Source of the DNA: a virus
Lineage: Duplodnaviria; Heunggongvirae; Uroviricota; Caudoviricetes
DNA: 21,707 nucleotides
Virus record (IMG/VR): IMGVR_UViG_2529292922_000023
Reading direction: 5' to 3' (one strand)
The first letter of the stretch is position 1; each line of letters opens with the position of its first letter. Both the position numbers and the translations under genes were made by a program. Shown here one piece after another: positions 11,676 through 16,220 of the stretch. The notes under the pieces were generated by a model that did not search any database, was not told the DNA's origin, and saw nothing but the letters and a program-made list of their open reading frames with translations.

Positions 11676-13980
<2,305 letters not shown>

Positions 13981-13983
13981 TCA

Positions 13984-14256
13984 TCATTCGTTTTTCATAA
14001 CTGCCGCATTTGTGGCTGTGTGACTTCTACGTAACAAATCAGGGATTGCATCTTCAGGATGGGGATAAAGATCTGGTCTTAACCCATGAGGAGTAACTTT
14101 CCATTCCACAACTTCACATACACGCAAGACGAAACGAGCAGGAATTGTTCTTTTTGAAAACCATTGGTTCACAGCTTGCGGCGTAACGCCTAGATTTCGC
14201 GCTATGGCATTTTGTGCAATTAGCTCACGAAGTGCGTCGTAATCATTTCCTTTCAT
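13984..14256 (-). CDS. cro: Cro-like HTH regulator
   Basis: 90 aa, divergent from the cI-like gene across a 134-bp operator region; HTH segment (RNLGVTPQAVNQWFSKRTIP). Confidence 0.65.
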   Translation of the reverse strand: MKGNDYDALRELIAQNAIARNLGVTPQAVNQWFSKRTIPARFVLRVCEVVEWKVTPHGLRPDLYPHPEDAIPDLLRRSHTATNAAVMKNE

Positions 14257-14390
14257 CGCAACCCACCAATCTAAACTTTATAAATTCAAGATTACATCAA
14301 GTTTAAATTAACATGCAAGTCCACAAAAGATCGAATACACTAAAATCAAGTAAAAATTTATCGAAACCAAGTAACCAGCAAGGATTAACA
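14257..14390. promoter_or_regulatory. OR-like divergent promoter/operator region between cro and cI
   Basis: Candidate pR on the minus strand: TTGCAT (fwd 14313..14318), 16-bp spacer, TGTAAT (fwd 14291..14296); ATCAAGT motif copies at 14296..14302 and inside the 13-mer AAATCAAGTAAAA at 14343..14355, which recurs downstream of cI. Confidence 0.5.
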
Positions 14391-15080
14391 ATGAAAAACT
14401 TAAAGAGCACTGAAAATCGAATTACAAAGCTGCTACAGGAGAAAGGCTGGAGCCAAGCAGAGCTGGCCCGAAAATTAGGTGTCAGCGCACAGTCCGTACA
14501 GTACTGGACAACAGGAAAAACATTTCCAAGGGGAAACCGGCTTGCCCAGTTATCCGAAATAAGTGGTTATCCGCAATCGTGGTTTTTAGGAGAAATCACG
14601 TCACGGCAGTTCTCTTCAAAGGAAAAACATCAAGCAAGAACTGACAGTGTGGTCTTTAACGTGCTCGATGTTGAGTTTAGTTGCGGCGATGGAACACATG
14701 TCCGTGGGGACTTTATCGATGTAGTTCGCTCAATCGAGCTTGATCCTGAATATGCCCGTCGCCTTGTTGGCAATAGAGCATTTCAAAACATAGAGATTGG
14801 TAACGCAAGAGGAGATAGTATGGCTCCAACAATAGCCCCAGGAGATCTTCTTTTTCTCGATAAAACAGTGAATTACTTTGATGGTGATGGCATTTATGCT
14901 TTTTGCTTTGATGGTGAATGCTACGTCAAAAGATTACAAAAGATAGGAAGTAAAATCATGGTGTTATCTGATAACCCAAATTACCAATCCTGGAGCATTG
15001 AAAAAGATGCTCTTGAGCTGCTTTATATCCAATCGAAGGTAATCTCATCTGTTCCATTCAATATAAATAGATTTGGTTAA
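14391..15080 (+). CDS. cI: CI-like repressor (N-terminal HTH, C-terminal S24 LexA-type peptidase domain)
   Basis: HTH (GWSQAELARKLGVSAQSVQYW) plus autocleavage domain with GDSMAPTI (Ser) and KRL (Lys); AGGA RBS before ATG 14391; the ORF-track start 14313 adds an unlikely 26-aa extension. Confidence 0.85.
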   Translation: MKNLKSTENRITKLLQEKGWSQAELARKLGVSAQSVQYWTTGKTFPRGNRLAQLSEISGYPQSWFLGEITSRQFSSKEKHQARTDSVVFNVLDVEFSCGDGTHVRGDFIDVVRSIELDPEYARRLVGNRAFQNIEIGNARGDSMAPTIAPGDLLFLDKTVNYFDGDGIYAFCFDGECYVKRLQKIGSKIMVLSDNPNYQSWSIEKDALELLYIQSKVISSVPFNINRFG

Positions 15081-15098
15081 TTATTGATTATTAAAGAA

Positions 15099-15226
15099 AA
15101 ATTTACAAATCAAGTAAAAGAGACGCAGAAATCAATTTTTTCTTGACAACTCCATCAATCAAGATCTAACATCACACCATCAATTTTGACTTGATTTATT
15201 GTTAATTTTAAATTGATGGTGATTCA
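15099..15226 (+). promoter_or_regulatory. OL/pL-like promoter-operator region downstream of cI
   Basis: Consensus -35 TTGACA (15143..15148) with TAACAT -10 (15167..15172, 18-bp spacer); second candidate TTGACT (15186..15191), 17 bp, TAAATT (15209..15214); operator 13-mer AAATCAAGTAAAA at 15107..15119 and reverse copy ACTTGAT at 15189..15195. Confidence 0.5.
15175..15221. repeat. Perfect 12-bp inverted repeat CACCATCAATTT / AAATTGATGGTG
   Basis: Arms at 15175..15186 and 15210..15221, 23-bp spacer, spanning the second candidate promoter and ending 5 bp before the ATG at 15227. Confidence 0.7.
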
Positions 15227-15655
15227 ATGAAAGATCTGACAACCGCTGAGATATCGAACTTAAACCACTTCGAAAAAGAATCCTTTGCATTAAATATTGC
15301 AAATCTGGTAGGTGCTGCTCGTACTTTCCATTTAATTGATGGTGATCGCTCTAAAGAATTGGGGTTTGAAGTCATGGAGTTTGTTCATGAATACGCCCTG
15401 TCTGCTACTTATCCATTACATAATCACATAATCAACAAACAACCAAATAAAATCCGCACCCAACGCGAAGCCTGCGGCTTAACAACCGCCGAACTCGCCA
15501 GGCTGCTCGATCTCGATGAAGAAATTATCATCCAGTGGGAAAGCGGAGAGTACGAACCAACCATCAGCATGCTTATCCCTCTGGCTAATGTTCTTGGCTG
15601 TGATCCAATGTTGTTATTGACTGATGCTTATAAACAAAATCAGGAGGAAGCATAA
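15227..15655 (+). CDS. HTH (XRE-type, C-terminal) regulator, HigA/Aca-like architecture
   Basis: 142 aa; C-terminal HTH (GLTTAELARLLDLDEEIIIQWESGEYEPTISMLIPLANVLG) with about 80-aa unknown N-terminal domain; first gene after the IR/promoter. Confidence 0.65.
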   Translation: MKDLTTAEISNLNHFEKESFALNIANLVGAARTFHLIDGDRSKELGFEVMEFVHEYALSATYPLHNHIINKQPNKIRTQREACGLTTAELARLLDLDEEIIIQWESGEYEPTISMLIPLANVLGCDPMLLLTDAYKQNQEEA

Positions 15656-15656
15656 G

Positions 15657-15848
15657 ATGAAAATGTTCAAAGGCCTTACCAACGAACCGGAGACAGCTTT
15701 TCATCACATTGCCGTACTGCTTGAAGCGGGGTTAATCATTTCGGCTTCCGGTGATGAAGAATGTGATGAACTTTCGGATGATATCTTTTTACTGGCACAA
15801 CAATACGCCAAAAGCGCATGCGATGCATTTAAGGAGCAAAGAACATGA
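15657..15848 (+). CDS. Small acidic protein (63 aa), unknown function
   Basis: AGGAGG RBS 9 nt before ATG 15657, immediately after the HTH gene stop; acidic composition (DEECDELSDD). Confidence 0.55.
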   Translation: MKMFKGLTNEPETAFHHIAVLLEAGLIISASGDEECDELSDDIFLLAQQYAKSACDAFKEQRT

Positions 15849-16036
15849 TAACTCCATTAAATATTCTTGAGGAAGTGGCGGCACAAATAAAAGAGAATAC
15901 ATCAATGCTTGAATTTATATTTAAGAATTCGCCCGACCAAGGAGAGACAGACGATTATTTATGCTGTCTCATTCGCTCCATGAATAAGACCTGTGAAATG
16001 GCTTACGAGTATATAGAAACACTACGCAACGAATAA
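15845..16036 (+). CDS. Small acidic protein (63 aa), unknown function
   Basis: ATG overlaps the upstream stop (ATGA coupling), AAGGAG RBS; acidic, Cys-containing. Confidence 0.55.
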   Translation: MITPLNILEEVAAQIKENTSMLEFIFKNSPDQGETDDYLCCLIRSMNKTCEMAYEYIETLRNE

Positions 16037-16220
16037 AGAACACTCAGTAAAAAATCACACATAAAAACATGACGGCCTCTGGTCGTGGATTTCCACAACC
16101 AGAAAATAATGGTGATGCATGAAAAATAGAAACGCTTATAAAACCGCATTATTAATGGCTAATGCAGGATACTGGTCAGTTGCAATACTGTTTCTCAGAA
16201 AAGCATACGGGAAATAACAA

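Follow-up and report, generated by a model that had tools for sequence, protein, structure and literature searches.

CI/Cro operator arrays and hairpins that sequester a Shine-Dalgarno (SD) sequence are both well known. In lambdoid phages such as lambda, 434, and P22, CI and Cro bind arrays of 14-18-bp pseudo-palindromic sites over PL and PR; in lambda, these sites lie over the -10, over the -35, and upstream. The leader of lambda N, the first PL gene, forms an RNase III-sensitive stem that occludes the N ribosome site. Among mobile elements, IS10 reportedly (work of Davis, Simons and Kleckner from 1985) relies on an RNA structure in which read-through RNA from outside the element hides the transposase ribosome site, with the 5' arm located upstream of pIN. 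Similarly, an inverted repeat in the 5'UTR of IS200 sequesters the SD and works alongside a terminator against impinging transcription (PMC4513863). What is new at the locus described here is best described as a pair of operators with outer half-sites that continue into the promoter start and the SD and together make up a putatively promoter-selective anti-SD hairpin.

The locus lies in a 21,707-nucleotide stretch of viral DNA (IMGVR_UViG_2529292922_000023, hereafter the window). Positions 13900-16100 are 99.8% identical to Escherichia phage phi467 (LN997803), an Stx2f phage (PMC7366253), and 99.9% identical to several E. coli prophages. By annotation and domain scans, this is the lambdoid immunity region of phi467; a search of the literature on phi467 found nothing about the repressor or operators of this phage. 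A cro-like gene (13984-14256, minus strand) encodes a helix-turn-helix (HTH) protein of the YdaS/P22_Cro type according to the domain scan. The cI repressor gene (14391-15080, plus strand) encodes an HTH and an S24 peptidase domain, and the nearest match to its HTH among solved structures is the 434 repressor. On the same strand and directly downstream, beyond an intergenic region of 146 bp, lies the first early-left gene (15227-15655, plus strand; hereafter the HTH gene), whose 142-aa product has a C-terminal HTH_3 domain and belongs to phrog_4836, labelled "CII-like regulator".

For comparison, we collected 80 viral contigs encoding a CI that is 80-100% identical to the phi467-type CI and added E. 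coli prophages, phage PhiR49_2, two genomes from other genera, and the Stx2a phage Stx2_14040. The scan of genome contigs contributed only the latter two genomes from other genera, both in the group with 80% CI identity, and a second scan of viral sequences with a divergent HTH query recovered no new immunity types. The HTH gene is carried by three sub-groups, namely A (phi467-like), B (most of the E. coli prophages), and C (Stx2_14040-like).

The first-pass annotation had described a perfect 12-bp inverted repeat that abuts the start codon of the HTH gene, and its arms, spacer, and position are all confirmed in the sequence. The left arm CACCATCAATTT (15175-15186, plus strand) and the right arm AAATTGATGGTG (15210-15221, plus strand) are complementary over all 12 bp, flank a 23-bp spacer (15187-15209), and leave 5 nt (ATTCA) before the ATG at 15227. 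Each arm has two parts. The left arm is composed of CACC (15175-15178), the last nucleotides ahead of the predicted transcription start A15179, followed by ATCAATTT, the left half-site of an operator-like sequence termed OL-b. The right arm is composed of AAATTGAT, the right half-site of a second such sequence (OL-c), followed by GGTG (15218-15221). The latter begins the hexamer GGTGAT (15218-15223), which we take to be the SD of the HTH gene because it is complementary to the 3' end of 16S rRNA. Among perfect 12-bp inverted repeats with a spacer of at most 60 nt, this is the only one in the window. In first-order Markov simulations, 8.7% of whole windows and 0.6% of 146-bp intergenic sequences with matching composition contained at least one such repeat; the repeat is therefore moderately unlikely to have arisen by chance alone. 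It also persists in relatives that keep the operon, in modified form, at 80 of 80 loci where a phi467-type CI is followed by the HTH gene, and is absent where the phi467 CI family precedes a different first gene. The repeat takes its perfect 12-bp form in the phi467 sub-group alone, where members share more than 97% identity with each other.

The arms belong to a family of 17-bp pseudo-palindromes. With up to three mismatches allowed, the pattern ATCAAGTnAAAATTGAT matches the 21.7-kb window five times relative to 0.35 expected, and none of 100 shuffled sequences gave five matches. Two matches are located on the cro side of cI (14296 and 14345) and three on the left side (15131, 15179, and 15201), such that the family is confined to the two intergenic regions flanking cI. 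The cro-side sequences are ATCAAGTTTAAATTAAC (14296-14312) and ATCAAGTAAAAATTTAT (14345-14361), and a weak operator-like 17-mer with four mismatches (14265-14281) adjoins the cro SD (GGTGGG, minus strand). On the left side, OL-a (ATCAATTTTTTCTTGAC; 15131-15147) covers the -35 of a conserved promoter and is itself conserved in all five groups of relatives; OL-b (ATCAATTTTGACTTGAT; 15179-15195) fits the palindromic consensus ATCAAGTnnnACTTGAT best; and OL-c (GTTAATTTTAAATTGAT; 15201-15217) is degenerate, with a reverse complement, ATCAATTTAAAATTAAC, that resembles ATCAAGTTTAAATTAAC at 14296. A stricter core, ATCAA-N7-TTGAT with at most one mismatch, is found at 14345, 15131, and 15179. The consensus ATCAAGT-N3-ACTTGAT was derived from relatives with 80-83% CI identity, which feature near-perfect palindromes (ATCAAGTTtAACTTGAT) at the -35 and 6 nt after the -10. 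These groups have a different first gene, and both the third site and the right arm are absent. The 434 repressor half-site ACAAG resembles the TCAAG of this consensus, a weak analogy only.

Eight nucleotides of the left arm fall within the operator-like site at 15179, and eight of the right arm fall within the one at 15201. OL-b can be read as ATCAATT-TTG-ACTTGAT; the left half belongs to the left arm, and the right half reads ATCAAGT on the opposite strand. The arms, which lack internal symmetry, have centers separated by 35 bp, while the ATCAA of each arm has a TTGAT partner 7 bp away within its 17-mer, as is usual for binding by an HTH dimer. The arms had been considered distinct from the ATCAAGT motif shared with the cro-side operator region, and probably bound by a different protein. 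We find instead that ATCAATT/AATTGAT and ATCAAGT make up the two halves of one type of 17-bp pseudo-palindromic operator. The DNA anatomy of operators, promoter start, and SD is well supported and overturns the different-protein reading. We conclude that the repeat is probably a composite of two outer operator half-sites, a promoter start, and an SD, and judging from the sequence, the arms would be CI/Cro operator half-sites rather than the site of a third protein. The abutment of a half-site and an SD is likewise recurrent: TTGAT followed by GGTG also precedes cro in relatives, and in those with 80% CI identity the equivalent of the 14265 site is strong, with ACACC ahead of it.

Overall, the arrangement is similar to the lambdoid operator arrays in that 17-bp pseudo-palindromes occur only in the two intergenic regions flanking cI, three left-side sites extend over the predicted -35 and +1 of a leftward promoter, and the repressor combines an S24 autocleavage domain with an HTH most similar to that of the 434 repressor. 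It differs from lambda in site spacing (the -35, +1 to +17, and +23 to +39), in a third site adjacent to the SD, and in an operon whose first gene encodes an HTH protein rather than N.

Two promoter-like sequences lie within the intergenic region. The first, TTGACA-N18-TAACAT (15143-15172, plus strand), matches 10 of 12 consensus positions and appears in relatives as TTGACA-N17-TAATAT. Its predicted start, A15179, is 7 nt past the -10 and preceded by C, as is canonical. The second, TTGACT (15186-15191) and TAAATT (15209-15214), spans 15186-15214 on the plus strand with a 17-bp spacing and 9 of 12 consensus positions. It does lie inside the repeat, as the first-pass annotation had observed, but its role as a promoter is doubtful. 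The G at 15188 that makes TTGACT is polymorphic among relatives, which instead have TTAACT (GenBank phi467 and most of sub-group A), ATAACT (B), or ATATAT (C), and a predicted +1 at approximately 15221 would remove the SD from the transcript. Based on the unconserved -35 and the loss of the SD, we rejected this candidate and take TTGACA-N18-TAACAT as the PL equivalent. All promoters here were called by consensus match, and such matches are no more frequent than expected from shuffled sequences. The layout around the predicted PL is constant across relatives: TTGAC (-35, inside a 17-mer), the -10, exactly 6 nt, and a second 17-mer. Accordingly, the window has OL-a over the -35 TTGACA and OL-b 6 nt beyond the -10.

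At the RNA level, the suggestion that a stem could occlude GGTG is thermodynamically strong. The 58-nt RNA from 15175 to 15232 folds into the 12-bp stem (-17.5 kcal/mol, z -5.0). When 15160-15240 is folded, this stem lies inside an extended structure (15162-15237, plus strand) with a minimum free energy of -23.6 kcal/mol (z -4.3), in which AGAUCU (15162-15167) pairs with AGAUCU (15232-15237) and the CAU of the -10 (15170-15172) pairs with the AUG start codon (15227-15229). The energy needed to open the SD (positions -15 to -4) of the HTH gene is 14.5 kcal/mol, the highest among 40 phi467 genes (median 5.6 kcal/mol, next highest 11.8 kcal/mol). The earlier proposal that the stem forms in RNA from the upstream promoter is doubtful. 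The RNA of the predicted PL itself would start inside the left arm and lack the CACC needed to pair with GGTG. RNA beginning at A15179 has a best fold of -9.1 kcal/mol (z -1.5), and opening its SD would cost 8.1 kcal/mol, still more than the genome median. Because the predicted +1 falls inside the left arm, the full stem is expected only in RNA that enters from further upstream, i.e., from cI. Within 14950-15260, the prediction yielded no intrinsic terminator; the stem is followed by AUUCAAUGAAAG and does not resemble a terminator with a G+C-rich stem and U tract. Rfam 15 covariance models had no match in 14200-15900 at E-values up to 1.

Comparable hairpins are predicted throughout the relatives that carry the HTH gene. 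In sub-group B, the structure is ATATC(G)CACCA(T)CAATT / AATTG(T)TGGTGGATAT (-20.9 kcal/mol, z -5.0); in sub-group C, it combines the helices ATATC/GATAT, CACCAT/ATGGTG, and CAATT/AATTG (-20.8 kcal/mol, z -5.4). Both B and C build their outer helix from the -10 hexamer region TAATATC and the bases right at the ATG. Hairpin strength is thus retained in sub-groups A, B, and C through differing helices, and the median SD opening energy over the 80 loci is 14-15 kcal/mol. The groups with 80-83% CI identity and a different first gene have ordinary values of 5-9 kcal/mol. Compensatory changes were not found in any of the 12 stem pairs across 27 distinct sequences, where five pairs depart by unpaired cells only. 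Within types, we counted by eye four wobble-compatible and eight disruptive variants, close to the neutral expectation, and disruptive arm variants (GGCG, GACG, CAAC, and CACA) are common in relatives.

Eight leader types place a homologous HTH gene immediately after a repressor gene on the same strand. The L104 type features TACATTCACCTCAC-N13-GTGAGGTGAATGTA immediately 5' of the ATG, with 14 of 14 positions paired (-25.1 kcal/mol, z -8.3); its predicted -10 is TACATT, its SD is GAGGTG, and its arms bear no relation to the TAGCA..TGCTA operator-like repeats of the same phage. The phiP27 type features TGATACCTTAGTTAC-N15-GTAACTGAGGTATCA, then TCTC and the ATG, with 15 pairs including one G-U (-21.6 kcal/mol, z -5.6) and a left arm located between the predicted -35 and -10. 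In all five types with a hairpin, the sole predicted plus-strand promoter has its -10 within or just before the left arm. Opening the SD of these types would require 14-21 kcal/mol in RNA entering from the repressor gene, versus 3.5-8 kcal/mol in RNA that starts 7 nt after the -10. The remaining three types (L105, L122, and L174) have no such hairpin, and their SD opening energies are 1.6-5.9 kcal/mol. Three independent hairpin lineages each exceed the maximum of 39 control genes. A terminator after cI is not predicted in the window, in sub-group C, in the phiP27 type, or in the L104 type. We also considered a rule by which the hairpin occurs only where cI lacks a terminator and rejected it: A, C, phiP27, and L104 fit, while B has both features and L122 has neither.

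Together, these features suggest a fold-back model for promoter-dependent translation. Because the arms are complementary over 12 nt, transcripts entering from upstream would fold into a hairpin of approximately -23.6 kcal/mol and thereby conceal both the SD and the AUG. With no predicted terminator behind cI, read-through from that gene would supply these transcripts, and the HTH gene would not be translated from the cI transcripts of the lysogen. The untranslated read-through RNA may also be prone to Rho termination through polarity. Transcripts from the predicted left promoter, by comparison, would begin inside the left arm without the CACC anti-SD and be translatable. The recurrence of promoter-to-SD complementarity in unrelated sequences speaks for RNA-level selection on the pairing; the argument that the foldable transcripts come from cI is drawn from the 5' arm straddling the core promoter. 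We lean slightly toward the hairpin being a selected RNA feature. The whole model, in which cI read-through RNA is untranslatable and RNA from the conserved promoter is translated, falls a little short of an even chance in our estimation, and we are somewhat more hesitant still about a hairpin that acts specifically on read-through RNA, a claim that combines a predicted start site, putative read-through, and a putative translation block. Sub-group B, which has both a terminator after cI and the hairpin, counts against the model, as the logic of a hairpin replacing a terminator fails there. The lack of compensatory changes, the three leader types with no hairpin, and the above-median SD opening energy of RNA from the predicted start weigh against it as well.

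The closest parallel to this model is the fold-back of IS10 and IS200. As in those elements, the predicted stem buries the SD and AUG, and the 5' arm lies across the predicted core promoter and start of the gene, an arrangement in which RNA begun outside should be the only RNA to fold. The last base of the -10 is 15172, the first of the arm is 15175, and +1 is predicted at 15179; four other leader types share this predicted geometry. Also as in IS200, the hairpin of sub-group B co-exists with an upstream terminator. The locus differs from the insertion sequences in belonging to a prophage immunity region rather than a transposase gene, in that the repressor gene of the phage itself would be the source of the "external" transcription, and in that the arms would double as repressor operators. 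The lambda N leader is comparable as a structured leader of the first PL gene that occludes a ribosome-binding site. It differs in that the lambda structure is contained entirely in the PL transcript, extends much further, and undergoes cleavage by RNase III, whereas here a 12-bp stem has a 5' arm that straddles the predicted start.

If correct, the fold-back model would keep the early-left operon silent on read-through from the repressor gene in the lysogen and active from PL after induction, as a translational counterpart of the lambda t_imm terminator. It would thereby explain how a prophage without a terminator after its repressor gene maintains a silent early-left operon, and it would add a promoter-selective RNA layer to the CI/Cro switch of Shiga-toxin phages and many E. 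coli prophage relatives. It would also provide a compact case of one DNA stretch that serves as operator, promoter start, and anti-SD arm. We found no description in the literature of read-through insulation in prophage immunity regions. More tentatively than for phi467 itself, we suggest that unrelated lambdoid immunity modules may have independently evolved leaders in which the bases before the start codon pair with the -10/+1 region of PL, making translation of the early-left operon promoter-dependent.

Alternatively, the symmetry could be functionless, a pure by-product of neighboring pseudo-palindromic operators that supply inverted half-sites, with a coincidental match of CACC and GGTG. 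The mapping of the arms onto the operator 17-mers is what this explanation predicts, and the conservation of the arms needs no RNA function because they contain operator half-sites, -10-proximal bases, and the SD. The absence of covariation, the common disruptive variants, and the chance rate for whole windows point the same way, and the TTGAT-GGTG junction before cro in relatives indicates that a half-site can repeatedly abut an SD for reasons at the DNA level. However, a by-product does not readily account for an SD occlusion that is the strongest of 40 phage genes or for hairpin strength that is retained in A, B, and C by different helices. Nor does it account for 14-15-bp repeats with the same promoter-to-SD geometry in two unrelated immunity types, one of which (L104) has a repeat unrelated to its own operator-like repeats; that three independent leaders should all exceed the control maximum is unlikely by chance. 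We therefore regard the by-product explanation as unlikely, though it deserves more weight than the two that follow. Were it correct, the finding would be ordinary, yet an uncharacterised immunity type would still gain its first operator map (ATCAAGT-N3-ACTTGAT). A further possibility is that the hairpin acts on the left promoter's own mRNA, as a throttle on translation of the HTH gene, a 5'-end protection, or an RNase III or thermosensor switch, in the manner of the lambda N leader. This was the idea of the first-pass annotation, and it requires either that the true start lies at or before 15175 or that a partial stem suffices. The -10 hexamer predicts the start to about 2 nt only, the fold from 15175 is strong, and the SD opening energy is raised even in RNA from 15179. 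Set against this, the canonical start leaves out CACC, the fold from 15179 is no better than those of shuffled sequences, and the left arms of the L104 and phiP27 types lie wholly within or upstream of the predicted -10 and so outside the promoter's own transcript. An own-mRNA function is accordingly improbable.

The least probable explanation, and in our view a very improbable one, is that the repeat serves some protein other than CI or Cro as a binding site of its own, either the downstream HTH protein in autoregulation or a host factor like IHF. We compared 80 loci with an HTH domain 74-100% identical to residues 65-142. Both CACCATCAA and the right-arm motif are present at all eight loci with a phi467-type CI, versus neither motif within the 520 nt scanned upstream of the HTH gene at any of 73 loci with a 74-93% identical HTH domain and another repressor (CI identity of at most 38% or no detectable match). 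For example, phiP27 L10 encodes an HTH domain that is 82% identical, with the same helix-turn-helix sequence, next to an unrelated repressor, and CACCATCAATT was not found in this region. The motif thus travels with the repressor type, which speaks against binding by the downstream HTH protein. The spacing of the arm centers and the asymmetry of each arm are likewise a misfit with one HTH dimer. In favor of a separate protein, CCATCAAT occurs four times in 190 bp (15152, 15177, 15212, and 15335) relative to 1.2 expected in the whole window, and AATTGATGGTGAT is repeated exactly inside the HTH gene at 15334-15346. The latter copy, however, encodes LIDGD where relatives encode LLDCA or LLDDT. 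ATCAA is also the core of the IHF consensus, but the flanking bases, judged by eye, misfit WATCAANNNNTTR, and an IHF site was rejected.

Finally, TTGATGGTG has six copies in the window relative to 0.24 expected, five of them within 470 bp (14878-15344). We considered this cluster as an independent binding motif and rejected it, as the two copies in cI are FDGD and FDGE codons with third positions that vary synonymously in relatives and the copy at 15336, in the LIDGD codons, is a coding coincidence. Positions 15211-15223 and 15334-15346 share an exact 13-nt identity.

Inverted repeats of 14-15 bp are also found in two loci of unrelated immunity types (L104, 1347-1387, and L118, 1363-1407), where each is the locus's own and extends from the PL -10 element as far as the homologous HTH gene's Shine-Dalgarno sequence. 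It is because these unrelated types have their own -10-to-Shine-Dalgarno repeats that we consider a fold-back hypothesis, in which the hairpin silences cI read-through RNA only. The promoter that the first-pass annotation placed over the repeat has a -35 hexamer that arises through a single polymorphism at 15188, which is G in the window (TTGACT) and A in most close relatives and in phi467 as deposited in GenBank (TTAACT).

Further copies of the arm and operator sequences occur nearby. The right arm plus AT, AATTGATGGTGAT, recurs as an exact 13-nt copy within the HTH gene, 123 bp downstream (15334-15346), where it codes for LIDGD; this copy is confined to the phi467 sub-group. Between the -35 and -10 elements of the conserved promoter, at 15152-15159, there is one more direct copy of (T/A)CCATCAAT, in the phi467 sub-group only; the equivalent position in locus L016 carries the full CACCATCAAT. 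The 15152-15159 copy could be an extra half-operator.

On the cro side, a weak operator-like 17-mer (14265-14281) within the minus-strand leader (14257-14300) adjoins the cro Shine-Dalgarno sequence, GGTGGG. Relatives whose CI is 80% identical have a strong operator next to cro, with CTTGAT-GGTG as its cro-strand sequence, such that a module of an operator half-site plus GGTG is common to cro in these relatives and to the HTH gene. The opening energy of the cro Shine-Dalgarno sequence (10.6 kcal/mol) is the third-highest among 40 genes, and the 91-nt cro leader has a fold z of -2.6.

Just after cI, an intrinsic terminator, consisting of GGGCTTTGCCCG and a run of Ts after it, is present in sub-group B (most E. 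coli prophages) and in the 80-83% CI groups, and is absent from the phi467 sub-group and sub-group C when 15081-15130 is compared with 1540-1600 of the sub-group B locus L004. In its place, phi467 carries an extra AAATCAAGTAAAA copy at 15107-15119, identical to 14343-14355. The repeat spacer of L004 also includes a minus-strand promoter-like match directed back at cI (TTTAAA-N16-TATAAT, 10/12, 1668-1641); RNA from this predicted promoter would be antisense to the 3' end of cI as well as to the PL start. The promoter consensus scan did not flag this match in the window, where the sole minus-strand match is TTGTAA-N17-AATAAT (15108-15080).

A four-codon mini-ORF (ATG GTG ATT CAA TGA, 15216-15230) starts within the right arm and ends in a stop codon that overlaps the main start codon (ATGA); it lacks a recognisable Shine-Dalgarno sequence. 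A second inverted repeat, also perfect, TTCATCACATT ... AATGTGATGAA (11 bp, 49-bp spacer; 15700-15710 and 15760-15770), sits within the small ORF 15657-15848 (phrog_4587).
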